Assembly: GCA_001724265.1 (NCBI GenBank)
Contig: MEDY01000370.1
Coordinates: 1 to 56,335, forward strand
Length of the DNA: 56,335 bases
Direction of reading: 5' to 3'
DNA from: Rhizaria sp. SCN 62-66
Lineage: Eukaryota
Part shown: piece by piece, positions 2,824-54,018 of the stretch
Position numbering within the stretch: position 1 is the stretch's first letter
Layout of the letters: every line of letters starts with the position of its first letter
Position numbers and translations under genes: made by a program
Notes under the pieces: generated by a model
Database searches by the model: none
What the model saw: only the letters and a program-made list of their open reading frames with translations
Told to the model about the DNA's origin: nothing

Positions 2824-3947
2824 TGCTGGAGCTGAGGTTGGTGTGACTGCAGCTGCGGTTGTTGACTCTGCAGCTGGGACTGATTGTTTTGGCCTTGAAG
2901 CTGAGGCTGCTGGTTTTGCAGCCGAGGCTGTTCGTTGCCAATGTACTGCCCCTGATCAAAACCATCGTGACCTTGACTGCTTTTGAATTCACCACCGTTA
3001 TTGTGAACGGTGTTGTTCTCAGGATGACTCGCAAATAGCCCACTATTGTTCTGTTTGTTGTTATCGCTCCGAGCCCTGTCCTCAGCAGTCGCAGCGACAG
3101 GGCCGGGCGCAGCAGCAGCGGGCGCAGTGTTACGCGGTGCAAATGCAGGCCAGCTGATGCGCACCAATCCCCCCGCACCCGCGCCGGCGCCGGCGCCGTT
3201 ACCAGCGCCGGTATTTGCGGCATCCGCGTTGCCCGCAGTCGTAGTCGCAGCGGGGACAGCGGAAGCAGGGGGGGAAGAGGCAGGCACGGCTGCAGAGTCC
3301 GTCTCCGAGTCAAAGCCATAACGGAGATGGCCAGTGCCGTTGCCGCTGCCGTTGCCATTGGTGTGGTTGTGGTTGTTGCCGACGGCGTTCGAACTGTTAG
3401 GGAGCTGCGGACCGAGGGGCTGCGGACCGAGGGGCTGGATGCTCACGGGCACACCCGCATCGCCATTAGCGCCGTCAACCGCCTGGGCGCCGCCGTGTGG
3501 GCCGGACGGCTGCATATGTTGCTGTCGCTGAGGAGGCTGCTGTGGGGCGTGGCGCTGTTGCTCCTGCTGCTAAGGCCGGGGCCGTGCAGTGAAGACGGGG
3601 AAGCTGTCGTCAGCGCCGCCGTAGTAGTCGCCGTCCTCGTCCGCAAACGCAGCAGGGGCGTGAGAGTTAGCCGTGGCGTCTCCGTCAGCGGCGCGCGGGG
3701 TGGTCAGCCGGCGGAACCCCGGCCTGGGGCCATCGACGCGGTCCTCATCGCCCCCGGCCGCAGCAGCAGCAACAGCAGTGTGCGCTGGCGCCGCGGGGCC
3801 GTGTGTGGGCGCGGAGAAGAGGAAGCCCGGCTCCGGTAACGGCTGCGCGGGGGGCAGACCGAAGTTGTTGTCGGCGGAGTCGGAAAAGTCTGCCTCTCCG
3901 GCCGGTGCCGGAGGGGTAAGCAGCGGAGAGTACGGCACGGGGTCCAT
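1..3947 (-). CDS. Large low-complexity (Gln/Pro/Tyr/Ala/Asn-rich) protein of unknown function, 3' end beyond the window edge; one in-frame TAG at 3570-3572
   Basis: ATG at 3947 (MDPVPYSPLL...). The frame continues through TAG (ARPRP*QQEQQRHAPQQPPQRQQHMQ) and stays open for about 3.5 kb to position 1. It includes poly-Q, NPY/DPY repeats and a globular-looking segment (LLWHPTRRLRLP...EVSCQFVQDCERNLLLIGIP). Confidence 0.8.
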
Positions 3948-4554
3948 GGCCAGTGCCAACCGCGTAAGCGCAGATGAAGAGGTGTGGAGTGCGGGCGCGT
4001 CGCTGCGGCGGACGAAGGAGGTTGCGGTTGGAGACCTCGCGAGATGGCTCTCTGCTCGAGAGGTAGACTGCGTTTTGGAATAAAATAATTGAATATATAG
4101 TGAGATCACGCCAAATTAAATCCACAAAGTGATTCATATACTCAGTAACGGATCATGGGTTGAGATATGGCTGCGCAAAGTTAGTCTTGTTTGAAAAGTC
4201 CTCCAACGGACTGACTGGTGACTGCGATGCAGTTCGCTTGTGGCCCGTTTGTGGTGGCTCGGTCCCGTTGGACCGGAGATGACGAGAGGCGATCGAGGAT
4301 CACGGCAGAGCAGCGCGTTCACACTTGATTGACGATACCTAGCGCTGAAAACTTGAAACTACACTTTCAACCGAGCACGGCTATACTACCACCAATTTTC
4401 TCTTCACGAAGTAGCGCTTATCCACTTCTACACTTTTCCCCGCACCTCCACTCATCGCACTTCCACCACCCCGCCATTGCGCGCCTCTGTCTCTCTCTCC
4501 CATCCCCGCTTCCCGCCCACCTGCGCGCATACCGCTGCCCTCGCCCCCGCCAGC

Positions 4555-6157
4555 ATGTCGACCCCCGCCGACGTCCCTGAGACCGACTCCGCCGCGCCCG
4601 CCGTGGTGCACAAGTGCTCCGGCAAAGACTGCACCGCCGATGCCAAGATGCAGTGCCCCACTTGCATCAAGTCGGGCGCGCCCGCGACCCACTTCTGCTC
4701 CCAGGAGTGCTTCAAAGCCAACTGGGCCGCGCACGCGCCCACGCACATGCAGTACGCCCGCTTCCAGCGCGCGCGCGACTTCGTCCCCCCGCGCTTCCGC
4801 TGGACGGGCCCGCTGCGCCCGTCTTACGTCACTCCGCGCCAGGTGCCACCGCCGGTGCCGCGCCCCGACTACGCCTACACCGGCGACCCGCGCATCGAGG
4901 ACCAGAGCAAGTTCCAGCGCGTGGCGCCGACGTTTACGGCGGAGCAGGTTGCGCTGATCCGCGAGGCCTGCGCCATCGGCCGCGGCGCGCTCGATGTGGG
5001 CGCCAAGCTCTGCGTGCCTGGCGCCATCCCCGACGACATCGACCAGGCTGTGCACAACTACATCGTGTCCAAGGGCGCGTACCCGTCGCCCCTCAACTAC
5101 CGCGGCTTCCCCAAGTCTGTGTGCATCAGCATCAACGAGGTCGTTTGCCACGGCATTCCTGACATGCGCCCGCTCCAGGACGGCGACATAGTCAACATCG
5201 ACGTCACCGCCTACTACAAGGGTACGTGCGGCTCTCTCTATCTTTGGTGTTAATTGTAATTATTCAAGTGTATTATGTAATACGGCGGGGTTTATATCTA
5301 TTTCTGAAGTTTTTTTTTGTTTCGGCGTTATCTCTGCTGTCAAGTGTCTCATCTCTATCACGCCCTTTCGTTTTGACACTGTGATCGCTCACCTCTCTCT
5401 TAGGCTACCACGGCGACCTGAACGAGACGTACACGGTCGGCAAAGTTGACGACGCCGGCAAGAAGCTCATCAAGGCGACCTACGACTCCCTGATGGCGGC
5501 CATCGCCTCTGTCAAGCCCGGCCAGCCGATCCGCGAGTTCGGCAACATCATCACCAACGTCGTCAAGCCCCAGGGCCTGTCCGTCGTGCGCTCCTACTGC
5601 GGCCACGGCATCGGCGACCTGTTTCACTGCGCGCCCAACGTGCCGCACTACCAGAACAACAAGGCCGCCGGCGTGTGCAAGCCCGGCATGGTGTTCACCA
5701 TCGAGCCCATGATCAACGAAGGCGGCTGGGAGGTATGTACTCAAATTATACTATTTGTGCAATATTTCGCTGTATATAAGCTGCATGACGATATATTTAT
5801 CAATTATAAACATGGTTTTCTCTTCTATCTTTTATATTCAACATGTCTCATTCAATTACGTCTCTTTGTCGTGTTTTATATTCCTTGCCAATTGTTGCTG
5901 TACAACAACTGCAGGTCACCACTTGGCCCGACGACTGGACGTCTGTGACCACTGACGGCAAGCGCAGCGCCCAGTTCGAGCACACGCTCGTGGTCACCGA
6001 GGACGGCTGCGAGATCCTCTCCGCCCGCACTGCCGACTCGCGTCCCCTGTGGTGGGAGGAGGAGGCCGCCGAGGCCGCCCCCGCCACCGCGGTTGCTGCG
6101 ACTGCGGCTGCCGGTGAGGCCAAGAAGGAGGAGACGGCTGCTGCGGCTGCCAACTGA
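4555..6157 (+). CDS. METAP1: Methionine aminopeptidase 1 (exons 4555-5221, 5404-5732, 5915-6157; TGA stop)
   Basis: N-terminal zinc finger (CSGKDC..CPTC..FCSQECF..W..H), [57 protein letters not shown]. The GT-AG introns keep the frame. Confidence 0.97.
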
Positions 6158-7142
6158 GTGTACAGGCGTTGGGGGACGACGACTGTGCTCCGCGTGCGGT
6201 GTGACCGTGGGCATTCAGTGACTGTGAGCACTCAGTGACTGTGAGCACTTAGTGATCATGGGCGCGATCGAATGAAGTACGGATGTTTGAGTGTGTTGGT
6301 GGTGACTGTGAGCGTAGGTTAGCGCTTGACAGGCTACTTTTACGGCACTTAGACTTCTCAAGTGCTTCAAAACTGACTGAGTATACTGTTCTTCAGTAGA
6401 AATGTTGCTCACTGACAGTTGTCTTGTAATCACTCAGATTTTTTACACGTCTCTTCACTGGCGGGTATGTCGCTGGTGTGGATAGCGGCTCATTGCTGTG
6501 TTGCGTCTTAGTCAGTCAGTGCCTGGAACTGCGACTGCGCCTGCGCTTGTGACCGCGACTGCACAATGATGATGTTGAGGTTTTGATGTTCATGTACAGT
6601 TGAGAAGTGATGAAAGGGCACTGACGAATAAACAAGTGTCTTATTTTATGCGATACATCACAGTGGTTGTTTGAATATTCTTCAATTTTTTCGTTAATAA
6701 TGTCAGTATGACTTTGTAACAGAGTCACTGAAAATGAATCTACTGATTACAGCCAAAAGGTTGAGAATACGACCGTAATTACGGTAATAACGAGCACCCT
6801 CGAGGCGCTGTGCTGGCTCGTTTGTGGCCAAGATCCTGACTTGATTTTGATTGTATGCCATGGATCAATCGTCAACTGTACTTGCACACGGCTAATCGCT
6901 CACCAAACATTGTGTGATTAATGGACATTTTATTAGAGCATCGAAAAACCTTTGGAAATCGCCTTAGAATCTTCTTTGTTTTTCTCGCTTTTGGCCTTCG
7001 CCTTCCTCCCCTCCTTCTGCAGATCTTGAAGAGCACATTTAACTTTGAAATATTGCTCACTACGTAAAACCACCCCGCGCAGACGCACACACAGACACAT
7101 TTTCATTGATATCAATCTCTATTTGTTGAGCCAGCTGTCTGT

Positions 7143-22248: not shown

Positions 22249-22526
22249 GGGTTGCGTCGGAGCGCAAAGATGGAGCCGGTCTTTGACTGGGTGTAGAGCT
22301 TTTCAAAACAGGTGGGTAGAAGAGCAAGGTGGATCACTATGAAAAATATATTTTATAATAACTTATATATCAGAAACAAAAAACTCAAACCGCAAACATA
22401 ACCGCACACAACGGATACTAAAGCTCACACATATACATGAATCAACGCAAAAGCTCGCCCACTCATTTCGCTCGCAATCAAGTTCACACAGACGGCACAT
22501 CGTTAAAGCCTCAGTCTCTCGCCCAC

Positions 22527-30297: not shown

Positions 30298-30313
30298 GGG
30301 TCGAGCAATGTGA

Positions 30314-30344
<31 letters not shown>

Positions 30345-31820: not shown

Positions 31821-34800
31821 ATGAAACCCGCTTCGCCGCTGTTTTCGACCCTTGTGGTCAAAGACATGCGCATTAAAGTGCGCTCCTAGTACGTCTCGTG
31901 CACTCGTAACTTCCGTCGTCAAGTACTATTCGCACGACAGATAAATAGGCGTGCACATGTGGTGAAGTGAAGCTAATTACGCGTGAAACTTCATCTTTAG
32001 CTTGTTCGTATATTTTCTATTACTATCACCTGACAATCCGTGTTCTCATTACTTAGTTTACTTTGTCTTACTTTTCTGTGCTGTTCCACAACAACTTTCC
32101 GCCGCAGTCTCTCGTTTACTTTCGAGCTTTTGCTGCCGATTCTCACCATCGTGGTCTTGGGCATCTTTTCCTCCAACATCTACGGCGCCGCACAGCTTAA
32201 GGCCAAGTCCACTGTTTCGTACGTACCGCTTATGACAGCACAGACCGCGTTCATCAAGTTTTCCGAGTCGGCCGCATGGATCCTCGCGACCGTCGACTAC
32301 CCGTTCGTGTACGTCGGCCCCGACGAGGGGTGGGAATCGTTCAAACAGTATTTGACGTCAGCCCGCGACGAGCAGGGCGTTGCTCTTATCACGGAAAAGC
32401 ACGTCTCGCGATTTGCCTCCCGTGCCGCGCTGATGGACGCTCTGGTCAAGACAAATCCGAACATAAAGTACGAAGAGACCTCGATCTTTCTCGGCGTGGT
32501 GGAGACTGAGACGCTCTTGGCGGACTCGGTAAAAGCTGATATCGCGAGAAGCCGTGAGACGCAAGTGAATGGTGTGGCGTTTGGCTCGTCGCACACATTC
32601 AACAGCCGCGTTTTCACGGCGACAGTCCCTGCTCAGGCGAGCCAGCCAACAACGCGGACCGGCGACGAGAGTGCAGCGATGCCGAGTACTCTGGGCAGCG
32701 CATCTCATTCCGCTATGAGCAGCAGCAGCGGCGGCGGTGGCGTGCTGCACCACGTCGAAATCATCCAAGCCTCGTCTTACACTTTCCGCGAGGCGCGCGC
32801 GGCCGCCGTGATGCCCACACACGCGAGCGCGCTGCCGGACGTAGACACCTATAGCTTGCGCGGGGTGTTTACCGTTGTCGAGGGGCTGCGCGCGCGATTG
32901 CTGCGCAAGTACGGCGCCATGACATTTGTGGATCCTCCTGTCACACCAAAGGCAACTGCTGCTTCTCGTGCTGGAAGCTCTGGTGTGAGTGATGACGGCG
33001 ACACTGACGTGTTGACTGTTGCTGCAGTTGCACTGTCGCTGCGCTTCCACGTCGCCGGCGCCCCATCCCTCGAGGGCGTTGCATTAGCACTGCTGCGCCG
33101 CGGCGACTTGGGCATCGCGACTGGCATCACACTGGCATTTTTCCCACCGTTCCTGCTTCTTCTCACGGCTATCCTCGGCGAACGCGAGACAAAGATGTAC
33201 GAAATGCTTCGCGTCACCGGGATCAGCCTGTCATCGCTCGCATTGTCTTGGTGTGCGACATATGCGATCACATCAACCGCGGTTGCCGCCGTCTCAGCAG
33301 TCGTAGCTTGGGTGACACTGCTTCCTAACACGTTACCCATCATCATTTTCCTGCCGCTCTGGCTGGCCTCTCTTAACGCCATTGCGCTCGCGTTGTTTCT
33401 CTCCGCGACGTTGCGCTCCATCCGCGCTGTGCAAATGGTTGGTGCAGTTGTCTTTGCGCTCCTATGCGCCTTGTACAGCGCAGTCGAGTCTGCCGCAGTG
33501 ACTGACGCAACCCTGCCGATCAAGCAAACCCGTGGCACGCTGATCATCTTACACGCGCTCTCGCCAGCAGGGCTTATGGCGTCGATGAACTGGCTGCTGC
33601 GCCGCGCGCGCGAGTCGGCTGGTGTGAGCTTCTACGACGTTCCTGTCACTAATGACGGCGTGTCAATGCTTTCGATCATGACGGCACTTGCCACGGGCGC
33701 TATTGTATTTTTCTTATTGGGAGTTTACTTGTACGCTGTTGAGGCCCACGCCAGAAACGAGAAGGTGCACTGCTCAACGCTGTTCGCACCTTTCGTGTCG
33801 CTTGGACGCGCCCTTTGTGCTTGCTGTTGCCCGCGCTGCTGCGGAGGCAGTTCGGCCCGACACCGCCGCGCGACCCAGGGCGGCAACAGTTTGTTGGGTG
33901 TTAAGCATACGGAGAGCAACGGAGACTACGATGATTATGACTATGATAATGCTGAGGAAGAGCGTCTTTTCTCGGAACCTGCACGTCACCATCCATGCGC
34001 CGTGATCGAACCAAACAGTGATATCCCCATTCAAGCAGAGCGGAAACCTTCGTCGTTGGCATCACCACTCGCCCATGGTAAGATGTATTATAGTACGAGC
34101 AGCCGTGGTGGTAGCACGCGTGATTTACGTTCTGGCAGTGACTCTGTGGATGTCAGCGTAGCTCGCGGGCATAGTAGTGCTGACTCTAACGGTGACCAGA
34201 ATCGCAGTGCGAACAACTTTGTTGATGCCAGTGTCTGTGACTCTCACTGTCATGGAGATGACCCTGAGATCGTGCGCATCCGTAACCTGCGCAAGGAATA
34301 CCCTGACAGTAATCTCGTTGCTGTCAAACGGTTTAACTTAGACATCCACCGCGGTGAACTTTTCGCGTTATTGGGACACAACGGTGCCGGCAAGAGCACA
34401 ATTCTCAACACGTTAACGGGCATGTGCAGTCCAACCGCGGGCGGTGCTCGCATTGATGGCGTTGACATTCGTTACCACAACCGCGCTGCTGCCGCTGCGG
34501 TTGCCGAGGCTGATGTTGATTTTGGACTCGGCATGAACCGCAATAGTAGCGATGCGCGTCGGTGGCGCAGGTGGCGACGGCGCGCTTTGTTGCGCGGTCC
34601 GTCGATCGGTTTCTGCCCGCAGCACGACGTGTTGTATCCTACGCTCACACCACGCGACCACTTCGAGCTCTTTGCCCGGCTCCGTGGAGTTCCCAGCGAC
34701 AAACGCGACGCCGAGGTCGAGAAATGGCTGATCGCACTGAACCTGAAGGGCCGCGGTGACGGCTTGCAGAACGACGGTGCTTCTGCGTTGGCTCCGACCG

Positions 34801-37800
34801 GGGGCGCGAAGTTTGCCGCCGCACAGGCGCACACAGCGCATCTACCGGGCCGGCTGGGCGGCCGTGTGATTGCCGACGCGCCGGTGAGCACGCTGTCGGG
34901 CGGGCAGCGGCGGTGCGTGTCGCTGGGCATCGCGCTGATTGGCGACCCGAAGCTGGTGATCTTGGACGAGCCGACGGCGGGGCTGGACGTCGCGGCGCAG
35001 GCCTCGGTGCGCGCGCTGCTGCAGGAGCAGCGCAGGCACCGCGCGATCCTGCTCACGACGCACTCGATGGAGGAGGCCGAGATCTGCGACCGCATCGGCA
35101 TCCTCGCCAACGGCTCGCTGCAGACTGTGGGTTCAAGTCTGTTCCTTAAGCGCACGTTCGGCGCTGGTTATGTGTTGTTTGTTTCCAAGGCACCTGAGGA
35201 GACTTTGATCGAGACTGCAGCCCGCGGAAAGGCCGCTGTCGCCGCTGCAGCCGCGGCGATGGCCGTGCTGGAGCCAACCCCAGAAGAACTTGCCGTTGAA
35301 GAGTCCACGCGAGTGCGGCTCACGCCGTCAGGCCGGCGCATTGCGCGCGCCTTATCAGCCGTGAGTGCGGAGCTTGTGGCACTCTCTGACGTCGCTGGAG
35401 ACATGAAATTCGCGATTCCAATCGCTGCAGTGTCACGTCTGCCCGATCTGCTTGATATGATTGAGCGTGATAAATCGGCTCTTAAGGTCGCGTCCTTTTC
35501 CGTTTCTGTCACACCACTTTCAGACGTATTTTTTACCGTGGCCAACGCCGCTGTCGTTGATGACGATGTACCTCATGCTGTCGTTCAAATCCCATCGGTT
35601 AAGCTGCGTCCGGAAGACTCGCTTGTGCACAGCAGCAAGTCTTCATTGCAATCCTACCGCGAGGCTGCTGCCTCCGCTTTAGCCGCCCCCCGTGCCAATG
35701 GGAGGGCTGGAGATGCTGATGACAGTCTTGACGCCGTCATTGTTGCCGATTCGATGCTTAATTTGACTCAGGCTGAGCTGCGGGGTGAAATCAAAGGAGG
35801 CGAGGGGGCTACTGCGACCCAGAGCGACGAGAGTCACGTGGCGACAGTTAAGCATATGGCTACTCGTGCGAATAATTGTCTTTCAACCCCACTGCTGTCA
35901 GATGCTGAACCGACAATGATTAGCAATATGTGTCACAAACATGTCTTTACCAACACGCAACCCGACTGTGATCGCGCGATTGACAACATCAACAAGAGCT
36001 CGAATGATTCTATCCGCGAGGTTTGCAGCGATTCCACGACAAGCGGTGTCAGTACCAACAACGGGCTCAATCCCTCGAAGACAGCCACTTTGGACCACCC
36101 CAATGATGCTGGCGCTGACATCAATGGTTTCTTCGCGCACAATGACAACCTTTGGCTTGATGACTTTGCACACCGCCGCCTTTATGGCCGCTCCGTTTTC
36201 TGCGACATTTTGCGAGCAATGTACTCCAAGCGCGCAAGAATTTCGCGTCGCGATTGTATTCCGATTTTTGTTCAGACTCTTGTTCCCGTTGCGGCTGTTT
36301 TTGCGTGCATGATGGCGCTGTATTTCGCCTTTGCGCAACCTGATCCTCGAGAGACGGTTGATTTTACACGATCAGGATTATTCTCTGAGCTCCCGGCGTC
36401 GCCAAAGGCTGCACTTACTCCACTGTACGAACACAGCGAAGGCGCCGCGCTGTTTACCAATGAATACGCACGACTCAGTGCGGCGGACGCCGCTCTCCAA
36501 CCTGTCGTTGTGACGCCCCGGGAGCACATTTATGCCGATTCGTGCTACAACGCATTCACATATCAGGAACATACCTTGCAGTTGATCAAGGGACTTGTTG
36601 CACCAGATTTCTACGGTGCAGTGATTGCCGTGTGCTCAGCAGAGAACATGTTCCTAGATACCGAATCGAGTGTTTTCAAGTCGACTAGCGCGAGGACTCG
36701 TGGCAACATTGGTGCTGCGACGGCGTCCGACTTTTCAGCAATGGTTTTGATGAACACAACTGTTCCAGATGCTCTGATCCTGGCGCAGGTTGATATCACT
36801 AACGCCATGCTTAAAATGGTCCATGATCGCTCTCTCGCTGCCGCTGCTGTCGTTGCGAGTGCGGATGGCGATAACTCAACAACAGCGATTTCGAACTAGA
36901 ATTTCATGACTGCATCTACACCTGCCCAGTTCCAGCTATCATTCACCACGCGCGTGGATTCGGTGGTCGCGGCAAAAACGTTCTTTCCAGAAGGTGCTCC
37001 AGCCGCGATCTCCATTGCTGTGGCGCTTGTGCTGCTGTCGAGTCTTTATGGAATGGTGCCTCTTCAGGTACGACCACTTGAAATTTTGACATGCATCATG
37101 GAATGTTTATAAATGTACATGTACCGTCTTATCTTTTCCTGGACCCCTAATTCTTGTATTCTTCTTTGTCTTGATTTCTACTTGACGTTACTTGCTGTCA
37201 CAGGAGCGTGTGTCACAGTCGAAGCATTTGCAGTATGTGTCTGGCGGGTCCAGCCCGGCGTATTGGATTGCAAACTTTTTCTGGGACATCACCGTCGCAC
37301 TTGTTCCCTACTTGGTATTCATCGGTGTCGGTCTCTTCACACACAGCTCTTATCTCTGTGGTCTGGACGTGTTTCTGATTTACTGGTCATTCACGTTTGC
37401 GTCGATCCTTCAGGCTTATTGCATGAGTTTCTTTTGCGAAACCCCTGGCCGCCTACAAACCGCCATGTACCTTGTCAACGCGGGCTCCATTGCAATTCTC
37501 ATGCTCACGCTTAGCGCCACAGTTGATCTCACATTACAATCAGCCGAAATAACAGAGACCCTGCCGTTGTCACGGATTTTCACAGTTATGTTTCCCACTG
37601 GCGGACTTCTCATTGCAATCTTTTTTTCCGTCATGGGCCCGCTATCTGGGGAAACGCTCGCGACGTTCTCGCCTAAAATCTACGCCGGATTTATTGCTGC
37701 CTCTGCGGTTTTCTACACAATCTTGCTAATCATTTTCGAGGTCAAGTCGCGGTACGGACTTGCCGACTGGCTACTGTGCGCGCGTGCGCCTCTCCACATG

Positions 37801-39275
37801 ATCAACCCGGGGCGCCACGAGCGGCCCGCGCGGGAGGACCCAGATGTCGCTGCAGAGCGCGAGGCTGTGCTAAACGGTGAGCGTGAGAACGCGATGTACT
37901 ACCCCGTGGTGTGCTACGGGCTGCGCAAGGTGTTTCCGCCGCGCCGCTCCCCGCCCGCACCCGCGCACGTGGCCGTCAGCGACCTGCATTTTGCCGTCGC
38001 CAAAGGCGAGTGCTTCGGCCTGCTGGGCTCCAACGGCGCCGGCAAGACGAGCGTGCTGCAGATGCTCACGGGCGGAATGCTGCCCACGTCAGGCGCTGCC
38101 ACCGTCAGTGGCTTTGACATCCAGGTTCGTTTTTGATTGTAGAGTTTTGCAATTTAATATCAGGTTTGATCATTATTACTCTATCTTATTCTTGTTCTGT
38201 TTCACTTCCGGGGATATGCGACATTGATCCATCTTTGCTCACCTCATTTTGTTGCATTCACTGTTCTTTCTAGATTGACTCTGAGGCTGTCGCTACAGTT
38301 GTTGGCTACTGCCCTCAATACGATGCCTTTGTGTCTCAGCTTACGGGCCGCGAGAACCTGGAATTCTTCGCTCGCCTGCGCGGTGTATCTGGTGAGCAAA
38401 TCACAATGTACGTTGCAGAGCTTCTGCGTCATCTCACTCTCGAAGCCTGTGCGGACCAAACTGCGGCCACGTACTCCGGCGGCAACAAGCGCAAGCTCTC
38501 GGTGGGCATCGCGCTCATTGGTAACCCGCCGATCGTGATCCTGGACGAGCCCTCGACCGGCGTGGACCCGCAGGCGCGGCGCTCGATGTGGCGCCTCATC
38601 TCGTCCACGATGGCGGATCGCGTGACTGTTATGCACGCCGGTGCGCTACAGTGCATTGGTACGCCGTCGTACCTTAAGGATGAGCTGGGCAGCGGGTTTA
38701 TCGTCACCATTGCGGCAGCATCTTTTGCCACACGTGCGGCTGCAGAGGATGCGATTTTGAGTCGATTTGTTGGTGCGATGAGGCGGGAGCAGCGCGGCGT
38801 TACTCTTAAGATCTACATTCCGCGTAATGCACACTATATTCCGTCTTTAACGGGTGCACGTGACGACACCAATTCTTGTGTGAGCAACACGTCACCAACT
38901 GATGTCGCTGCTTCTGAAGATGGTACGAAATCAAAGACTCGGAAGAGCAGGCGTGGTGATTCCATGCGCTCACTAAAGCCTGTTGGTTCAGCGCACCTTG
39001 CATCGCGCGCGATAAGTGCGGCAGTGATCTTCCGTGTCCTCGAAGAGGTCAAAACGAGCGTCGGTATTGAGACATACTCTGTCGCTACGACAACTCTTCA
39101 GGACGTCTTCCTCAAGATCGTGGCACCCGAGCTTGCTGTGGGTGGCACTGACGATGCCATGCTAGCATCTGCTGTGGCGGTTTCGCCTCATGTGCGCGTG
39201 GTTAATGCGGCCGAAGAGGATGAGAAAGAGTTGTACTCGTTCCAACGCTCGCTCATCGCTGCGCAGCACGTCTAA
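31821..39275 (+). CDS. Full-size ABCA-family transporter, about 2316 aa (exons 31821-31888, 32108-37067, 37204-38124, 38274-39275; TAA stop); in-frame TAG at 36897-36899
   Basis: LVVKDMRIKVR..LSFTFELLLP, GERETKMYEMLRVTG, LLGHNGAGKST, GFCPQHD, LSGGQRR, ILDEPT, LTTHSMEEAE; second half ERVSQSKHLQ..SG....YWIANF, LLGSNGAGKT, YSGGNKRKLS, LDEPSTG.DP, TLQDVFL. Confidence 0.92.
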
Positions 39276-39617
39276 ACCAATCGATAATGACTCCATTTGC
39301 CAAACATAATTTGACTTCATTTGATTAATTTTCTTTCTACATAGTAGTTATTGATCCATTATTCACTAATTCCTTGTTTCTAGTTCATCTACTTTCACCA
39401 GCTTGCGATTCAGCGAGTTCGTATCACATTCGGCACGCTACAACATACACAGCCAACTTTCTCCCTTCTTACAGATCTTCTGACAACCAAAACGAAATCT
39501 TCATACACACGGCAATCTGATCGTCAAAGTGTTAAAAGGACACCGACCAGAACTGTACACGCTGCCTTTCTTATTATACTCTTATTATATCTTTTCAACT
39601 CCCCATGTTGTTTTAGG

Positions 39618-41573
39618 ATGGCTTCTTTGGGATTCCGTGGTGGCGACGCCAAGTCTGTTGATTGCGACACTCCTGTTCTGCCCGACTGCATTGCTTCGCG
39701 CAAGACGCAGCCTTTTATGCCGGCCATTATTGTCCACGGTGGCGCAGGATGGATTTCTGACGAGCGCGCTGTGGTCTGCATTGAGGGCGTTGAACGCGCG
39801 GCAAAGGCAGGCTACGCCGTGCTCATGCGTGGAGGGTCCTCCATGGACGCCGTCTAGGCCGCTGTTCGGTACGATAAATTCTTTCCATAACAAGATGACG
39901 TTCATATATAGCCATTTAAATGGGGGTTGGAGCAATTTCCACTCACCTCGGAACTTTACATGTCTAATTGCTTTATATAAACCTATTTTTTATTCCTTGC
40001 CTCTCGCAGCGTCATGGAAGACGACGAGCAGTTCAACGCCGGCCGCGGCTCCGTCCTGACGACCGCCGGCCATGTCGAGCTTGACGCCGTTGTCATGTGC
40101 GGCGACACGCTTGCCGCGGGCGCCATCGCGGGCGCCACGTGCCCCCGCAACCCTGTCTCTCTGGCCCGACGCGTCATGGAGGCGACTCCGCACGTGCTTC
40201 TAACTGGCCCTGGCGCCGATGCTTTCGCGCGCGAGCCCGGGACCGGCGTGCAGTGCGAAGGGCCCGAGTACTTCATCACCGACACGGCGCGCGCACGGCT
40301 GGAACGGATGCGCGCCGCTGCCACCGCGGCTGTGGCTGAGGAGGCCGTCGCCAAGACCCACGCCAGCTCTGCGACGATCACTTCTGATGCTGCGAATGTA
40401 GCTAAGGCGGGATTCCGCAGCGCGCTCGCCGCTGGCGAGGCCCCGCCCGACGTGAACTCCTTTATGTCTCCTTCCGCCAGTGCAGGCAGCGCTGACGCCA
40501 CGAAGCACGCCGCTGCTGTCACGGCCGCGGGGCCCGGTTTAGCCACACTAGTGGCGAAAACGCTCTCCGCTTCAAGTTGCGTTGCCAGTGGCGCCCAGCG
40601 CGTTGTTGACGGCGTTTGCGAGAAGATTCTCCGCGACCGTGGGTTCGAGCACGACACGGTCGGCGCGGTTGCCATTGACGCCACTGGCTCTATTGCCGGC
40701 GCGACGTCGACAGGTGGCATGAGCAACAAGCGTGCTGGCCGTGTCGGTGACGCCCCCATCGTCGGCGCCGGCGTCTATGCGTACGTCATCCGAAACATAT
40801 CCGCAATGCATTTCCACCATAATTTTGCCTTTTGCATTCGCACTTTCTATGTTTCATTTTTACCTCATTCTGCACATGAGTTGTTTCACATCTTGTTTTG
40901 TTTGCTTGGTTGTTTGTTTGTTTGTTTGTTTTGTTTATACAGCGACTCCGCGGTCGCCGGTGTGTCAAGCACCGGTCACGGAGAGGCCATCCTCAAGGCT
41001 GCACTTGCCTCCCGCGCCGTCATCGCCCTCGAGACTGCCACCGCAGCTGACTGCAAGAAGCAGGAGCAGACTAGCAGTGACCATGAGAGTGACCATGGGC
41101 GCGCACTCGTACTCTATGCGCTCGTCACTGTGGCTGATGCAGAGGCCGCGCTAGGCGCTGACGCTGCGGCCGCGCTCCCGCGCTACGGTTCGCACTGCCT
41201 CGCGCCTCTGCCATCCACCGTCTCCGGCGATCACAGTATCGGCAGGGGTAACTCGTCAGCTGCGACTACGCCTGCGCCTGTGCCTGCGCCCGGGAGCGAC
41301 TGCGAACTCGCTCTCGCCCACGCGCTGCGGTACATGCAGACGCGCGTGGCCGACAGCGAGGGCGCTGGGCTGGTAGCGGTTGACAGCAAGGGTCGCACGG
41401 CGCGCGCGCATAATGCACCACGCATGAGTTGGTGCTCCGTCGAGACTGTGGCAGTTCCAAACAGCAACAACAAGAGCGATGATGACAAGAGTGGCGCTAT
41501 GCGTAAGGTGGGTGTTTGCACGGCGGGTGTTGAGGCGTACAGGCCCGTGCTGCGCGCGGCCATGCACTGGTGA
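39618..41573 (+). CDS. Isoaspartyl peptidase / L-asparaginase type 2 (Ntn-hydrolase), about 550 aa (exons 39618-39868, 40010-40780, 40943-41573; TGA stop); in-frame TAG at 39855-39857
   Basis: PAIIVHGGAG, GGSSMDAV*AAVRVMEDD.QFNAGRGS, ELDA..M.G, NPVSLAR, HDTVGAVA (Thr nucleophile), ATSTGG..NK..GRVGDAP..GAG.YA, STGHGE. Confidence 0.93.
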
Positions 41574-43099: not shown

Positions 43100-43745
43100 G
43101 GCGCAGGGTTGCGTTCGTGTGTGTGGGCGTCGAAATCAGGATATAGGCTCCTAGGCAGAGAGAAGTCGCGCCGTAGTGTGTGGCGCTGTTAGAGAGGCGC
43201 AGTTTGCCATTCAGAAGAGTGCAAATTGGTGAGCATATCATTCCAGTGTGACAACATTATAAGAATATATTTATCAGCCGACTTAAATCTCTCTTGAAGC
43301 AGTGTAATAAATTCCATCGGCGGACTTCTGAGTGCACAGTGAGATGTTGCTAAGTCAGTCATTGGTCGATCACTTTTTCTTTTTTCCGGTCCGTTGGCGA
43401 TCGACGATTGAGGTTTTCGAGCAGCTTTTGGTGACCGTGGGCTAAGGGCCACTTAGCTCAAAGCAGAGAGGACCCATCTGGCAAGCAACAAACATAATAT
43501 TTCGCGTCCTATAGCCCACGGGGTAGAGTGGCAATAGTTTTTTGTGATATACCACTGTATTTTCCAATTACACTTTAAACAAGACTTCTGATGAGTCAGA
43601 TGGGGACGCATACGAGCCTTCCCGACGTTTGCATAGAGCCCCCTTTCAGACCTGTCCCAAGCCCACTTTCCAAATCGCCCTCTGTTTCCCCCACATTCAC
43701 CCTGTTTCGCTCTTTGACGTTTTTGCCCACTTGTTTCGTAGTGTG

Positions 43746-46700
43746 ATGAGGTTTCTTGTTGGAATCCTTGTTGGCATCCTCGCTGCCGCCGTCGGCTCCG
43801 AGGCCATGTCTGTGACGAGCCGCGTCGAGCAGGCGTCCCTCTACCCTTCCGGTGTGGCGGCGCCCGTCGTGGCCGTTGCTGCCGAGGTTGCCGCCCCCGC
43901 GCACGTTGCTTCCGCTGAGGTCGCCGTCTCTGCCGAGGTCGAGGTCGAGGCTGAGCTCGAGTCCGAGTTCGGCATCGCTGCTTCGTCTTCCTTCATCGAG
44001 ACGGAGTTCGCCGAGGACGCCGAGGAGGAGGCTGAGCTTGACGCCGACATCCAGGCCGACATCGAGGCCGAGTACGAGGCCGAGGTTGAGGTCGACGCCG
44101 CCGACGAGGCCGAGGCTCCCGCCCTGCTCGAGCTCGACGCCGAGGCCGACATCGAGGCTGAGGCTGACGCTGAGTCCGCCATCAACTCGTTCCTCGAGGT
44201 CGCTGCCGAGTCCGAGATTGACCTCACCGCCGAGGTTGAGGAGGAGGCTCTCGCACAGGCCGAGTACGAGACCGCGTTCGAGGAGTTCCTGACCAACCCC
44301 ACTACTCCGGCCAAGGTCGAGGACAAGAAGGCAAGCGTCAAGGCCGCCGAGGCCGCCGTCAAGGCCGACCTCGCTGCTCCCGCTGCTCCTCTCGGTGCCA
44401 CTGCCAAGGCTGATGCCAAGGCCGCCGCTAAGGTTGAGACCAAGAAGGAGGAGACGAAGGAGGCCGTCGCCGCTGCTGTCGCTGCCCCGGTCAAGAACGA
44501 GACCGCCGCCGTCTCGAACGCCACCAGCGCCGCCGTTGCTCCTGTCAAGGTTGAGGATAAGAAGGCTGCCGAGGCTGCCATCAAGGCCGACCTTGCTGCT
44601 CCCGCTGCTCCTCTCGGCACCACCGCCAAGGCCGACGAGAAGGCCGCCGCAAAGGTCGAGTCCAAGAAGGAGGAGAAGAAGGAGGCCGCCGCCGCCGGTG
44701 CTGCGCCTGCCTCCGAGGCTAAGCTTGAGGATGCTAAGGCTGCTGTTGCCGCTGACCTCGCCAAGCCCGCTGTCACCTCTGCTGCGCCCGTCGTCACCCC
44801 CATCCCGGCTGTCGGCGCCGCCGCTGCTGCCAAGCCCGCCTTCCTGGAGGAGGAGGAGCCCGTCGTGGTCGCCCCCGCCCCCTCTGCTGCTGCTGCCCCT
44901 GCTTCCGCCAAGCTTGAGGATGCCAAGGCTGCTGTGGCCGCTGATCTCGCCAAGCCCGCCGCTGCTGCTGCCCCCGCTGCCGCTGCCGATGCTGCGCCCG
45001 CGTCTGCCAAGGTCGAGGCTGCCAAGGCCGCTGTCATCGCCGACCTCGCCAAGCCCGCCGTCGCTTCCTCTGGCAAGAACGAGACGTCGATTCCTGCTGG
45101 TGCCGTCATCCCTGTCAAGGTCGATGACAAGAAGGCTGCCGAGGCCGCCATCAAGGCTGACCTCGCCACGCCCGCTGCGCCCCTCGGTACCACCGCTAAG
45201 GCCGACGAGAAGGCCGCCGCGAAGGTTGAGGTCAAGAAGGAGGAGAAGAAGGAGGCTGCTGCCGCTGCTGCTGCCCCTAGCTCCGCCGCGCCCGCCGCTA
45301 CTGCATTCGTCGAGTCCCAACCGATCTACACCAACCGTCTTGACAAGATCTTTGCCCTCAAGCAGAACATCGTCGCCGTCGCCACCCCGCACGAGACCGA
45401 CGGCAGCCGCCTCATCATGGACACGCTCACGGGCAAGATTGCCGTCATCAAGCCCCGCCCGCCGCCGGTGCCCCTCTTGCCCGGACAGCTCCCCCCGTAC
45501 CGCCCCCCGCGCCCGTTCTTCCCTCCGGGCGTGAATGGCCAGACCTCGATCCTCAAGCAGGCCCTCGACGCGTACCGCCGTGAGCAGCGCATCAACGCCG
45601 CCGAGCTCGCCATCACGGACCTCTTCGGCACCACCGCCTCCACTGCCGAGGCTGCCTCGACCGCCACCTCCACCGCGGACGCCGCGGCTTCTGCTGACTC
45701 GAGCGAGGACGCGACTTTCGTCGAGCAATACAGCGCTAACTCCACCGCCGCCGCCGCTGCTGCCGACCCCAAGCCCGTCGTCGCCGCCGCCACCGTCGCA
45801 AAGGCCGAGGCTAAGACTGAGGCCAAGAAGGCCGAGGTCAAGGCTGAGGTCAAGGCCGCCGCCGTCCCCGCCGTCGCTAAGGCCGCCGTTGCTGCCAAGG
45901 TCGCCTCTGGTGACGCCGTCAAGGCCCCTGTTGCCGCCGCCACCACCGACATCAAGGGCCAGGCACTCGCCGCTGCGCTCGCCAGCGCTGTTGCCAGCAA
46001 TGGCACCGCCGTTGCCACCAACGGCACCGGCGCCGCCGTTGCTGCTGCAGCCCCCGCCGTTGTGCCCGTCAAGGTCGACGTCAAGGCCGCCGAGGCCGCC
46101 ATCAAGGCTGACCTCGCTGCTCCCGCTGCTCCCCTCGGTGCCACCGCCAAGGCCGACGAGAAGGCTGCCGCCAAGGTCGAGACCAAGAAGGAGGAGAAGA
46201 AGGAGGCCGCCGCCGCCGCTGCTGCTCCCAGCTCCGCCGCTGCCCCCGTTAAGGCTGATGACAAGAAGGCCGCCGAGGCTGCCATCAAGGCTGACCTCGC
46301 TGCTCCCGCCGCGCCCCTCGGTGCCACCGCTAAGGCTGATGCCAAGGCTGCTGCCAAGGTTGAGGAGAAGAAGGAGGCCGCCGCCCCCGCCGCCGTCTCT
46401 GATGTCAAGCTCGAGGCTGCTAAGGCCGCCGTTGCCTCTGACCTCGCCAAGCCCGCTGCCGCCGCTGCTGCCCCCGCCGCCGCCGCCGCCGCTGCCCCCG
46501 CGATGTAGAGTGTTAGCACCCCTGCCACTGCCGCTGCTGCCGCCGCCGCTAAGACCTCGCTCCTCGACTCTGCCGTCCCCGAGGACGTCGCTGCGTCTAT
46601 CGACGACCAGATCGCGCTCGGCAAGGCCCGCGACGGCCGCCAGGCCTCTGGCCGCCCCGTGCTGCCGCGCAAGAACCAGCTCCACGCCGAGTACGACCTC

Positions 46701-46934
46701 GCGCAGCGCGCTTCGACATTCAAGGCCGCGCAGGCCAAGATCCAGTCGCTCGGTGATCAGATGGCGCGCGCTGAGGCCGCGGCCGCCGCCGAGGCCGACC
46801 TCGCGGCAGCGACCATGAACGGCCTGCTCACCCCTGAGCCGGCGTCGAACGTCATCATCGCGGGCAAGACCAACTTCCGCCCCAACGATGAGTTCGTCCT
46901 TGCGTCCGCCAACACCGGCGTGCCCCTCGTCTAA
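43746..46934 (+). CDS. Secreted or surface Ala/Lys/Glu-rich repeat protein, about 1062 aa; in-frame TAG at 46506-46508; TAA stop
   Basis: Signal peptide MRFLVGILVGILAAAVGSEA, acidic region, internal repeats, and strong GCC/AAG/GAG codon bias. The frame continues after TAG (APAM*SVSTPATAAAAAAAKTSLLDSAVPED...) into the 46659-46934 ORF. Confidence 0.88.
44341..46460 (+). repeat. Intragenic dispersed repeats: 5 x KAAEAA(I/V)KADLA.PAAPLG.TAKAD.KAAAKVE and 4 x K(L/V)E.AKAAV..DLAKPA
   Basis: Read directly from the translation and from the near-identical nucleotide blocks. Confidence 0.9.
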
Positions 46935-49040: not shown

Positions 49041-50432
49041 TCAGTGACCCGTCGTCGTCGAGTCTGTTGTTGCGTTTGCCTTCTCTTCGTCCGCCACCAC
49101 AGCCTCAACCAGCTCAATGGCGCGCTTGATGCCACATCGTTCGCTCTCGTCCCACGCCAACATCGCCTCCAGAGCCAGGAGCTCGTTCTCCCGCACTTTG
49201 TGACATGGGTATGCAGCCACAAGTGAACGCAGACCCTCATGCTGTAATTTTGAATATGCCCGAGTTTTATAGAAGAGTTTTTGTGTCTTCTCGAGTTTTT
49301 GTGTCTTCTCGTTCTCGCGGATGCGTTCCTCATTGTCATACGGCGCAAAATCGGTGATGAACACGAACAGCATATAGCCTAGTGCGTAGATATCAGCCTT
49401 GAACGGGTCGAAGTTTTGCCTCAAAACTTGAGGAGAGTTGTACTTAGGGGTTCCCATGGTCCCACTCATGCGCTCAGCGACGACTGTTCCTGTGAGATCA
49501 GGCAGTTGACGAGAAATCTTTTGCGGAGTAGGCCACTCATCCTCAGCTAAGCTCTCGTTGACGCCGTCCATGCTCAGAGCTGGAAGCTGCTCGCTGAGAA
49601 ACGCAGGAATATCCTGGCAGATCGTGCTGATAACGCGCTGCCGGCTTTCCTCGTCGTGCTGCTCCAGATGAGCCGGATCTACCACGGGACCAAAGCTGTT
49701 CTTGAGAGACTCGTGTGAGCGGCGCCAGAAATCGGTGCAGGACTGTGCGATTCTCCACCATTGTGATGCCGTCGCGACATAGTTCTCATTAGCACCGGCG
49801 GGAGCGATGAAGCGAGCCGGTGTCGCAACGCGTGACATGCCGAAGTCGATGAGCTTCACGAATAGTTCTTTAGTGATTGCACACCGTTTGAACACCACGT
49901 TCTCAAGCTTGAGGTCGAGATGTGCCATGTAAAGACGGCTGTGCATGTAGTCAACTGCGTAGAGCAGATCGAGGAACATGCGCAGCCTCTCCAGGCGAGT
50001 AGTAGTTGCGACTTCATCGAGCCACAATGAGAGGACCTGGGCTCCGCCATCCTCCATCGCAAGGGCAACACGCTTCTGCTGAGCAGGGTTACCAACCGAC
50101 GCAGCAGCTAGAACTAGGGCCGTCTGTGGGAAGCACGGATGCCTCTCGCAACCCACAAAGCGGGTTGCGGCCCACTCGACAAGGGGGTCCTCGAGCTCAG
50201 AAATATGGATCTGATTGGTGGAGATCTTAGTGACTACTTTCTGCCCACCAAGACCGACAGCATGTGCCGCAACCCGATTGTCTTTGGCAATGATAATTTT
50301 GTTTTTAGGCTAGTCGACGAGCGTTCCGACTATTGGGTTGAGTAGGGTGCGAGTCTGCTCCTCGACGTCCTCGAAGTCCACGACGGCTGTTGGATCTACA
50401 GGGTCGTAATGCGTGCGCAAAGCTGATAACAT
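49041..50432 (-). CDS. Divergent Ser/Thr protein kinase, about 463 aa, intronless; in-frame TAG at 50310-50312; TGA stop
   Basis: ATG at 50432, ...GTLVD*PKNKIIIAKD...QKVVTKIS (VAIK equivalent), EDPLVE (helix C), HLDLKLEN, VKLIDFG, GTPKYNSPQV, KADIYALG, ML.WDESER. Confidence 0.85.
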
Positions 50433-50537
50433 TGCGCCGGCTGCAATTGCAGAGGGTAGAATACATGCGTTATAGTTTTGTTGTAATAGTGTTTTGCTGT
50501 GAGACTTTGATCGTGATCAAAAACAAAGGGAGAGCGT

Positions 50538-51006
50538 TCAGAGGTAGCGATGACCACAAAGGGGGCAATTCCTTCGGAAGCAATCACGCTTTTTGAGAGA
50601 CTTGCAATGCAACACCACATTACTGATCTTAAATTAACAATGTGGACACACGTCATATTGATGTGACCGATTGCTATGCTATGTTTTTACTGCGCAGCAA
50701 TGCTGGGGAAAAACGCGTTTCGACTAGCAGGCCCTTGCTTTTCCTGGACTCGATGGGGCTCAGTTCACGTCAAAGTGATTGTGATGGTCAGAGGTGGCGA
50801 TGACCACCAAAGGGGCATTCGGAAGCAATCACGCTTTTTGAGAGACTTGCAATGCAACATCACATCATTCACCTTAAATTGGCAATTTGGGCGCACGTTA
50901 TATTAATGTGGCCGATTGCTATGCTATGTTTTTACTGCGCAATAATGCTGGGGAAAGACGCGTTTCGATTAGGAAGCCCTTGCTTTTCCTGGATTCGATG
51001 GGTCTC
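50538..51006. repeat. Diverged tandem duplication, two copies of about 220 bp with a 250-bp period (50538-50761 and 50788-51006)
   Basis: Shared blocks such as GGAAGCAATCACGCTTTTTGAGAGACTTGCAATGCAACA, CCGATTGCTATGCTATGTTTTTACTGCGCA and CCCTTGCTTTTCCTGGA. Confidence 0.93.
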
Positions 51007-51472: not shown

Positions 51473-51703
51473 TGGTGTGTGTCTCCACACTCTGCTTTGC
51501 GCCAGTAAGCTCGTCTCTTGTGTGTGTCGTGTGTCGGTCACATCTGTTTCTGTTGCAATTGCTACTCATTTGTAAATAGCTCTGAATCTTTGACAGCGAA
51601 GCTGTTGAATGTTGGTATACATATATTCCTTGATTTAAAGATCGATCTCGAATGAACTATAAATATCCATCAAGTTGGCAACAAGCCAAGAAACTTTGCC
51701 GAA

Positions 51704-51751
51704 TTCGACTGATTCTTTCGCTACAGTTTCGACTGATTCTTTCGCTACAGT
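51704..51751. repeat. Perfect 24-bp tandem duplication (TTCGACTGATTCTTTCGCTACAGT x2)
   Basis: Seen directly in the intergenic sequence. Confidence 0.9.
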
Positions 51752-51951
51752 GTGACAAGACTAATTGTCAGCTTGCATGATCATCAAATCATCAAGATTT
51801 CTGACATATGAACAAAAAACAGGGCTGTCGACATTAAATATGTTTACTATATGCTATGTCAATCAACACGGTTTGTAATACATGAACGAAATGAGAACGC
51901 GAGACCTGAAGTGACACATAACCTAGACACATGTATCCTACGCGTCTAAGC

Positions 51952-54018
51952 TCACACACCGCCGCCAACAGCGCCCTTAGCCACCGCCCCGCCTTGCGCC
52001 GTCTGTCCCGCAACCACAGCTGCAGCCGCACTTGGTGCCGCTGCCGCCGCAGCCGCAGCCGCCGTAGCAGCAGCTGCAGCTGCTGCTGCCGTGGCCGTGG
52101 CTGCAGCCTGCTGCCTCGACTTAAACACCGGCATTTTATGCGGCGGACACGGCGCGGGCGCCTCTGCAAACCACGGGTGACGCACGGCCTGCGCCGCTGT
52201 AATGCGCCGCGCCGGGTCATAACACAGCATGCGTCCGAGCAGGTCCACGCCGGCCTCTGACCCGGAGAGCGCGGGGAACGCGGCCGCGAGCGCAGGCGGG
52301 GACGGTGCGCCGGGGGCCGCGGCCGCTGCGGTGGCGGCAACGGCGGCGGGGGACGTCAGCAGCGGCGCGCACGCCGGCCACGCGGCGACGGTGGGCGGGC
52401 CGAGCAGACCGGCGATGCGCAGCACTTGCTCGGTGGTGTTGCCGCCAGGGAACAGCGGGTGGTGCAGCAGCAGCTCGCCCATGACGCAGCCGGCGGCCCA
52501 CATGTCCGCCGCCGTGTGGTAGCCGCCCGCGTTGAGCAGCAGCTCCGGGGCGCGGTACCACAGCGTGTAGACTGACGGGGATAGGGGCGCGAGAGGAGTC
52601 GGGAGAACGCGTGCGAGGCCGAAATCAGCGATCTTCAGGTCGCCTAAGGGCGACACCAGGAGATTACTCAGCTTGATGTCGCGGTGAATAATGCCCATGT
52701 CGTGTAGGTACTCTAGTCCGCGCAGCATCTGCAGCACAAGCGTCTTGACTTCGGAGACCGTGAAATGGCGTGCAGTGCGATCTAACAGCGTGCCCAAGTC
52801 ATACTCGCACAGTTCGAACACGATGAACACCTGGTTCGGCTGCCGGCCCACCACAACGTCCCGCAGCGCGACAATGTTGCGGTGCTCTAGCCGCCGCAGC
52901 AGCGCGACTTCTCGGAGAGACGTGAGATGGAATCCAAGGAGCTCGTTGGTGAGCAACAGCCGCTTCATTGCAACAGTCTCGCCGCTGCGTCGGTCTTTGG
53001 CCAAATAGACAGTGCCGTAGGTGCCTTCACCAAGGCGGCGGAGCTTCTTGTACATCGTGATGCTCGCGCAGTGGAATGAGCCCATCTGTGCGTTGAGAAC
53101 TTGCGTGCTGCTATCCTGATGCTGCTGCTGCTGCTGCTGCTGCTGTTGCTGTTGTTGCTGTTGCTGTTGCTGCGGCCCAGCTTCAGTCCCCGTTGTCCCC
53201 GTCGCGGGCGCAGGGTCGGCCGGCGGCGGCTGCGACTGGAGCGGCGGCAGCGGAGCCTGCGCCTCGCTCCCCGCAGCAGCGGCGGCGCTCGCGGTAGCAA
53301 AGCTCCACTGCTGATACTGCAAGAGGTGTTGTTGTTGTAATGCGTGCTACTGCGCCTGGTGTTGGTAATACTGCTGCAGCTGTTGTTGTAAATCGTAGAT
53401 GCCACCGCTCGCAGTGTCACTGCCACCGAAATAGGAGCTAGAGCTTGAAGCAAACTGCGAGGGCACGTTGTTGTAGTTATGAGACGAATAGGGTCCGAAC
53501 ATATGCTGCTGCTGCTGCTACTGCTGCATCGTCGGTAAGAAGGCGGGTGAGTACGCGTCAGTTGCAGCACCTGTACTATTCGCGCTCGCACTTGCACCCG
53601 TAGTCGCGGTCGCACTGTTTGCATTCGCTGCGTTTGCAGACGAACTTGCTGGAGCAGGCATGGGGCCATACGGCTGTTGCTGTTGCTGCTGTTGTTGCGC
53701 TGCCGCTGCTTCTGCGCTCGCAGATAAAGCCTCGAGGGAAGGGTGTCCGTAGAGGTATGCACTCTCTGCTGCGTTGAGTTGCTGCTGGAGCTGCTGATGT
53801 AGGTATTGTTGCCTCTGCTGCTGCTGCTCTTGGTGCTGTGAAGTGGACGTGTGTGGCAGTTGGCTAGAAACTGCGTTGTTCGCGCTGCCACCGCGGCCGT
53901 CGTAATTGAAGGTCTTAGAAATGCGCATTCCTGTGTCGGGGAGTGGCGTCTGGTCCGGTTTGATGCTGTGTGTCGTGCCGACATCATCGGTCATGGGCAT
54001 CACGCGAGTGGATTGCAT
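51952..54018 (-). CDS. CDK10/CDK11-like cyclin-dependent kinase with a long Gln-rich N-terminus, about 688 aa; in-frame TAGs at 53518-53520 and 53347-53349; TGA stop
   Basis: GEGTYG.VY.AKD, VAMKR, GFHLTSLRE (PSTAIRE position; compare CDK10 PISSLRE), DVVVG, HRDIKLSNLL, DFGLAR, TLWYRAPELL. The upstream frame is continuous through two TAGs. Confidence 0.9.

Follow-up and report, generated by a model that had tools for sequence, protein, structure and literature searches.

UAG as a probable sense codon, most likely for glutamine, in a GC-rich, intron-bearing contig of a wastewater eukaryote

Nuclear genetic codes in which UAG alone is read as glutamine, with UAA and UGA kept as stops, follow the pattern of NCBI table 15. 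In the parts of two papers that deal with such codes (PMC5304391, PMC11687900), this pattern is represented by the fornicate Iotanema spirale, the ciliate Protocruzia tuzeti and two phyllopharyngean lineages. For Iotanema, the account of its code in PMC5304391 gives 204 in-frame UAG codons in 126 genes, with stops in a proportion of 104 UAA to 15 UGA. The corresponding parts of both papers describe UAG as leucine in the uncultured rhizarian exLh and a TARA ciliate lineage, as serine in the green alga Scotinosphaera, and as glutamate, together with UAA as lysine, in one oligohymenophorean ciliate (PMC11687900, PMC5304391). Both UAR codons are read as glutamine in many ciliates, Hexamita, Streblomastix, ulvophycean algae and the aphelid Amoeboaphelidium protococcarum, as covered in part of PMC11687900. 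By these accounts, nuclear codes that split UAG from UAA are few, with several ciliate lineages and a single example each among fornicates, rhizarians and green algae. Here we describe a 56,335-bp stretch of DNA (contig MEDY01000370.1, called the window below) in which seven TAG codons lie in frame within six genes, and we consider it quite likely that UAG is read as sense in this organism.

The seven codons begin at 36897, 39855 and 46506 on the plus strand and, written there as CTA, at 3570, 50310, 53347 and 53518 on the minus strand, exactly where the first-pass annotation had placed them. The sequence and Pfam matches put each in the frame of its gene, with a CDK-like kinase holding two. 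As in the described cases of the table 15 pattern, to the extent that the passages cited above cover them, UAG occurs in frame in conserved genes and is missing from gene ends, UAA and UGA terminate, and glutamine is the likely meaning. The window is unlike Iotanema, as that code is set out in the account cited, in having 7 UAG in about 20 genes and stops of 9 TGA to 6 TAA, and it differs from the table 15 cases in being GC-rich (56.6%), with introns of 130-185 nt in many genes. A many-gene, intron-bearing 56-kb contig also does not resemble the gene-sized chromosomes of ciliates. With exLh, the TARA ciliate, Scotinosphaera and the oligohymenophorean, the window shares the uncoupling of UAG from UAA and, going by the same partial accounts, an origin in environmental or uncultured material; unlike in the leucine and serine systems, sequence context and a conserved column disfavour Leu and Ser. 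It resembles the UAR codes in the change from stop to glutamine, with TAG arising from CAG. Unlike in those codes, TAA terminates here, at 6 of 15 gene ends, with stop-rich non-coding sequence beyond, and no in-frame TAA was observed.

Homology supports the sense reading at three of the sites. The ABCA-type ABC transporter gene (32100..39272, +; stop TAA at 39273, 5' exon not located) matches the Pfam families ABC_tran, ABC2_membrane_3 and R1_ABCA1. Its orthologue P0142 is a single unbroken frame of 1861 aa that spans the region of the TAG and is identical to the window's protein across long stretches of the nucleotide-binding domain. In the window, the frame is open for 1621 codons 5' of the TAG (36897..36899, +), which lies in a linker of variable sequence that leads to the next transmembrane helix, and for 56 codons more up to the GTACGA donor of intron 1. 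Splice sites read from the sequence place the two introns at 37068-37203 (GTACGA..CACAG) and 38125-38273 (GTTCGT..TCTAG), and past the first of them the frame reads 'ERVSQSKHLQYVSG', matching 'ERTNFSKHLQLVSG' in P0142. Intron 1 is absent from P0142, where the frame is continuous, so this intron was gained or lost between close relatives. The P0142 open reading frame (ORF) ends directly past 'SGFDIQ', the point at which intron 2 starts in the window.

The second site falls in a gene of the Asparaginase_2 family (isoaspartyl peptidase/L-asparaginase) at 39618..41570 (+), assigned by Pfam and closed by TGA at 41571. Exon 1 (39618-39868) runs into a GTACGA donor, and after the intron (39869-40009, GTACGA..CGCAG) the acceptor restores '...VMEDDEQFNAGRGSVLT' in exon 2 (40010-41570). 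The TAG (39855..39857, +) stands between 'GGSSMDAV' and 'AAVR' in a conserved helix. In phmmer it aligns to the E of human isoaspartyl peptidase/L-asparaginase chains, 'GGSAVDAVEGAV', with the whole protein colinear with these human homologues, and the Asparaginase_2 match spans it, reaching model position 51; together, these alignments show that the TAG belongs to the mature coding sequence and sits in a conserved helix. The third site belongs to PK1, a divergent protein kinase gene (49044..50432, -; Pfam Pkinase; start ATG at 50432-50430, stop TGA at 49041). The orthologue P0143 (489 aa) aligns with it colinearly from the first residue onward, with the N-terminus 'MLSALRTHYDPV' in PK1 against 'MLPAARVPYSPV' in P0143 and 80 residues in each protein ahead of a conserved 'DPL.EWA.TR' block. 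The match of the N-termini sets the PK1 start codon at 50432, 40 codons 5' of the TAG (50310..50312, -), and placement of this TAG in a 5' untranslated region (UTR) was rejected on the conserved start and N-terminus upstream of it. The TAG itself aligns to an S of P0143 in a variable stretch.

If UAG were an ordinary stop, the genes around the TAGs would be pseudogenes or truncated alleles, or else the TAGs would fall in 5' UTRs, in in-frame introns that had escaped notice or in frames open by chance in GC-rich DNA. Public gene calls side with this view. In a public protein library, P0141 (1619 aa; 32034-36896) and P0148 (40 aa; ~50313-50432) are cut exactly at the TAGs at 36897 and 50310, which means that these calls used TAG as a stop. 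Against it stand the homology on both sides of three TAGs and the conserved start upstream of 50310.

Two further sites are supported by coding signal. Codon usage was scored as log-odds trained on 7,286 codons, with the tested flanks excluded; as a control, known exons were positive in one frame, while bins in which no gene was placed scored at most about +6 bits in any frame and were mostly negative. By this measure, the flank past the ABCA site (36900-37067) gives +0.266 bits per codon in frame. The TAG at 3570..3572 (-) sits between RPRP and QQEQQ in a gene for an unknown low-complexity protein (coding sequence about 3-3947, -), the 3' end of which lies beyond the window. Upstream of it, the bin 3601-3900 reaches +35.4 bits in that frame, with every other frame negative, and the segment 3573-4115 averages +0.228 bits per codon; an ATG ('MDPVPY') is found 125 codons upstream. 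A location in a 5' UTR was rejected for this TAG too, given the strongly coding upstream bin.

The other site is in a gene for an Ala/Lys/Glu-rich repeat protein (43746..46931, +; stop TAA at 46932), referred to here as the Ala-rich gene, whose product begins with a hydrophobic, signal-peptide-like stretch (MRFLVGILVGIL...). Its codon bias is the strongest in the window, at +40 to +70 bits in each 300-nt bin, and a poly-A RNA run, X7, has contigs over 43964-47145. Its TAG (46506..46508, +) precedes the TAA by 141 codons, which score +0.50 bits per codon in frame, or +70 bits in total, and no ATG follows the TAG for about 95 codons. A diverged X7 contig (46786-47145) differs from the window at nine listed places, six of them third codon positions of this frame. 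On the minus strand, a stop-free antisense frame of 1114 codons (43596-46940) overlies the gene as a by-product of its GCN-rich codons. It was rejected as a real gene, with 250 bits compared to about 650 bits on the plus strand.

Support is weaker at the last two sites, both in the CDK-like kinase gene (51955..54018, -; Pfam Pkinase, 9.4e-63; stop TGA at 51952). This kinase has a Gln/Ala/Ser-rich N-terminal extension of ~310 codons that contains the TAG at 53347..53349 (-), between 'QHQAQ' and 'HALQQQ', and the one at 53518..53520 (-), which interrupts a CAG run between 'TMQQ' and 'QQQQHM'. The flank beyond 53347 scores +9.4 bits over 50 stop-free codons, and the bins 53401-53700 and 53701-54000 score +6.4 and +12.0 bits in frame, with all other frames negative. 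A relative, P0001, has a Q-rich extension of 154 aa too and carries Ile at the CDK gene's sole alternative Met.

Chance-open frames are a real feature of this DNA, as its GC- and CAG-rich sequence leaves several frames open in places, for example three over 3700-4100, and the antisense frame over the Ala-rich gene is another instance. For an ordinary-stop reading, the coding signal that continues in frame beyond 3570 and 46506 is nevertheless difficult to accommodate. A further test, which makes no prior assumption about the code, took in all boundaries of strongly coding ORFs under the standard code, 59 stop codons in all. Stop-free, in-frame coding signal continued beyond 4 of the 16 TAG boundaries and 0 of the 43 TAA or TGA boundaries (Fisher p=0.004; the +9-bit threshold was chosen after the data had been seen). 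The remaining 12 TAG boundaries include intron acceptors (38271, 42411) and other non-coding sites. Over an exon set of 11,605 codons, there were 7 TAG, 0 TAA and 0 TGA, a count that is partly circular, as the exons were bounded by TAA or TGA; the first-pass annotation had likewise found no in-frame TAA or TGA.

The gene ends give the same picture. We accepted 15 ends, comprising 9 TGA (MetAP1, gene 7110-9854, the gene ending at 16982, the last exon of the SDR gene, MFS, asparaginase, LipB, PK1 and CDK), 6 TAA (choline-transporter-like, gene 20410-22302, IMP3-like, ABCA, the Ala-rich gene and ubiquitin-like) and no TAG. By our own arithmetic, and for a small sample, zero TAG in 15 ends has a chance of ~0.013 if TAG usage were 25%. 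Past the TAA and TGA ends the coding signal stops and further stops appear, and some ends agree with the C-termini of relatives, namely PK1 with P0143 and the tails of choline-transporter-like (CTL) proteins. The absence of TAG from gene ends thus stood as the first-pass annotation had it, but its tally of 18 ends, 9 TAA and 9 TGA, was not reproduced; several of the ORF ends are intronic, such as the TGA at 11787, directly past a GTACGT donor. For UAG to be an ordinary stop, 6 of about 20 genes would have to be broken, by TAG only, in a window where no gene ends in TAG.

Splicing could in principle hide a stop, and other in-frame TAGs of the window, at 11125, 38271 and 42411, are indeed intronic; the one at 11125, rejected as a gene end, sits after a GTACGT donor. 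Intron length is 130-185 nt and intron GC 33-40%, compared to 55-75% in the exons around them. Their donors are uniform, GT[AT]CG (GTACGA, GTACGT, GTTCGT, GTACGG), and their acceptors are often TAG (TTAG, CTAG, GTAG). Introns or intron-bearing stretches were recorded at 5222-5403 and, on the minus strand, at 42411-42600 and 10600-11820, in addition to the ABCA and asparaginase introns. This unusual donor signature may aid identification of the lineage. Around the seven TAGs, GC is 0.51-0.76, compared to 0.33-0.40 in four confident introns, and five of the seven have zero GT[AT]CG or GTRAG donors in the 400 nt upstream. Near the two CDK TAGs there are donor-like sites; by our own arithmetic on the distances, introns starting at them would measure 128 and 154 nt and shift the frame. 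A 78-nt interval, GTTGCG..CCCAG, around 36897 was rejected as an intron: it is without the donor consensus, low GC and pyrimidine tract of the confident introns, and splicing it would remove residues weakly alignable to P0142. Introns are an unlikely explanation of the seven in-frame TAGs.

Recurrence in other data was evaluated in four sequencing runs, compared as assembled contigs rather than raw reads. In X3, a DNA run from another study, one contig spans 35667-37128 with 0 differences, including the TAG at 36897, a second (39271-41225) carries the TAG at 39855 unchanged, and a third (53451-54219, 0 differences) includes the one at 53518. The metagenome contig L001 is identical over 39298-40407, with 39855 included, and an X5 contig (46351-47152) bridges 46506 with 0 differences. 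Among the RNA contigs listed, none bridges 36897, 39855, 50310, 53347 or 53518. The X3 contigs listed do not extend over 50310 or 53347. The joints listed were repeat artefacts in Ala- and Gln-rich sequence, and none could serve as a splice joint. Contigs from other samples differ from the window at 3-nt spacing at 38504, 38507, 38516, 38519 and 38522, and across 46829-46919 most of the differences affect the third base of a codon. These habitats contain mixtures of related strains with a divergence of ~1-5%.

These comparisons bear on whether the genomic TAGs might be corrected in RNA by U-to-C editing, or be sequencing or assembly errors. A single C-to-T change from CAG could yield all seven. 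The X3, L001 and X5 contigs keep four of them (36897, 39855, 46506, 53518) with no difference listed, and the X5 contig, which is labelled RNA and is probably DNA, retains the TAG at 46506. We know of no editing of nuclear mRNA from U to C on such a scale, and we regard this explanation as hardly credible. That the TAGs are identical across data sets of different studies and years also speaks against an ordinary stop. Nonsense mutations by transition would mostly yield TAG, and this counts on the side of an ordinary stop; overall, we hold that possibility to be remote, though less so than editing or error. The first-pass annotation's proposal that UAG is sense while UAA and UGA remain stops is therefore supported by homology at three sites, coding signal at two, the lack of consensus introns, the gene ends and recurrence in DNA.

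Granted that UAG is sense, glutamine is quite likely its meaning, with glutamate improbable and any residue other than these two just as improbable; that UAG is both sense and glutamine is, taken together, a probable statement, held a little less firmly than either part. The CAG/CAA-rich Gln tracts reported by the first-pass annotation were found at 3570, 53347 and 53518, and 3 of 7 TAGs adjoin Gln, one of them in a CAG run. In the modelled proteins, the baseline for this is 28% for Gln, 7.6% for Glu and 6-7% for Leu, Ser and Lys. The likelihood of the neighbour context is 0.209 for Gln compared to 0.011 for Glu (about 19 to 1), and Gln outweighs Leu and Ser 24- to 32-fold. Rescoring the asparaginase column at 39855 with each residue gave Pfam scores of 39.6 (E), 39.1 (Q), 38.6 (T), 38.5 (K), 37.5 (L) and 37.4 (W) bits. 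The annotation's assignment of glutamine is thus the best-supported one, favoured by neighbour context, with the conserved column placing Glu marginally on top.

The same column, aligned to a human Glu, is the best argument for another residue, most plausibly Glu as in peritrich-type codes, or else Ser or Leu, as further codes of the UAG-only type have it. Codes with UAG as Leu, Ser or Glu have been described, in the part of PMC11687900 that treats them, and the PK1 orthologue carries Ser at 50310. The Glu-Gln gap of 0.5 bit is negligible, however, the Ser alignment falls in a variable stretch, and the lowest scores in the conserved column are those of Leu and Trp. Combining column and context by our own arithmetic favours Gln over Glu by roughly 13 to 1, and a sense UAG that stands for something other than glutamine seems to us unlikely, if the least unlikely of the alternatives.

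TAG is rare, as the first-pass annotation had noted, with 7 occurrences in the 11,605 codons (~0.6 per 1000) next to 333 CAG and 106 CAA, or about 1.6% of putative Gln codons. This low share means that the reassignment would be either young or still mildly disfavoured, and it fits a recent or mildly costly reassignment as well as an ambiguous state. In such an ambiguous or transitional state, eRF1 would recognise UAG poorly, a weak suppressor or tRNA-Gln(CUG) as a near-cognate would read through it, and genes would consequently avoid UAG in either role, stop or sense. The scarcity of in-frame TAG would agree with this, as would the location of most TAGs in disordered or variable segments, the C that follows 4 of the 7, and the lack of a dedicated tRNA in the 56-kb window. 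On the other hand, partial readthrough would be costly in the conserved enzyme helix at 39855 and in the Ala-rich gene, which has the strongest bias, is present in poly-A RNA contigs and holds 46506, and no gene among the 15 ends in TAG. We consider an ambiguous state improbable. Under full reassignment, UAG would be translated, most likely as glutamine, and UAA and UGA would be the sole terminators. UAG would then be read by a tRNA with a CUA anticodon, which would most simply have arisen by mutation in a copy of tRNA-Gln(CUG), and recognition of UAG by eRF1 would have been lost or weakened.

Several observations weigh against a sense UAG or against glutamine. The sample is small, at one 56-kb contig, about 20 genes and 15 gene ends. 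From the codon make-up, nonsense mutations of transition type would give about two thirds TAG, and under a transition-only nonsense model 7 of 7 TAG on its own reaches just p=0.05-0.09. Low-complexity sequence with several open frames surrounds 3570 and the two CDK sites, and the 78-nt interval around 36897 is in frame and conceivably an intron. The sole TAG in a conserved column fits Glu slightly above Gln, and the PK1 relative has Ser. TTG and CTG, a comparable first-position T/C pair, occur 111 and 328 times, so that the TAG/CAG ratio is ~16 times lower and TAG lies far below neutral expectation; TAG is also ~10 times rarer in frame than off frame and largely behaves as an avoided codon. 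Finally, a search of the 56-kb window for tRNA and tmRNA genes returned none, nor were any Rfam families found, which leaves the decoding tRNA unseen there, and eRF1 is not among the genes identified in the window, with no search aimed at it made.

The window is a eukaryotic contig. Its coding blocks are GC-rich and its spacers and introns AT-richer. Typical eukaryotic genes include methionine aminopeptidase 1 (MetAP1) with a zf-C6H2 finger, a choline-transporter-like protein, an SDR protein, an MFS transporter, the ABCA transporter, the Asparaginase_2 protein, LipB, an IMP3-like S4 protein, a ubiquitin-like protein and the two kinases, and several low-complexity proteins are without a Pfam family. 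Its best protein matches, at 44-60% identity, are to unnamed metagenome sequences. Matches that carry a name reach only 30-45%, with fungi best for the CDK (38-45%) and animals for the choline-transporter-like protein (~30%), and two atlas look-ups returned a mixture of phyla. Near-identical DNA is found in bioreactor, wastewater and activated-sludge metagenome runs from several studies. A metagenome scan returned only the identical 1110-bp fragment L001 and a distant locus, L002, of 19,753 bp, which carries an Asparaginase_2 gene 33% identical to that of the window. An exon at 14652-14990 (+) contains a GMP_PDE_delta (UNC119/PDE6D-type) domain. The ORF at 26160-26582 (-), which we take to resemble a cilia-associated protein, had no match in a Pfam search, and the resemblance was not confirmed there. 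This presumed resemblance and the GMP_PDE_delta exon are the sole, weak hints of a flagellated organism. Two copies of a 189-nt direct repeat (50573-50761 and 50818-51006), 89% identical and 245 nt apart, sit in the spacer between PK1 and the ubiquitin-like gene, and a run of at least 24 T (30298-30325) begins ~20 nt past the TGA stop of the MFS transporter (30295-30297).

UAG-only reassignment is a known kind of code change, and the organism of the window would be a further case, unusual in its GC content, its preference for TGA and its low UAG usage. A literature search, with supplements outside its scope, found no earlier description of UAG reassignment in a eukaryote from wastewater. It is possible, though we hold it only tentatively, that this is an independent and undescribed UAG-only reassignment at an early stage, in a deep, unsampled free-living lineage common in wastewater reactors. 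Eukaryotic bins of the organism would be mis-annotated unless the code is set, as the truncated public proteins P0141 and P0148 illustrate. A GC-rich, intron-bearing case that does not look like a ciliate would inform how UAG and UAA come to be uncoupled. The great scarcity of UAG, together with the TGA preference, would show an early or constrained stage that is lost in better-known cases. If the reading is true, the window would offer a natural snapshot of the path from stop to sense, with UAG gone from gene ends yet making up less than 2% of Gln codons.

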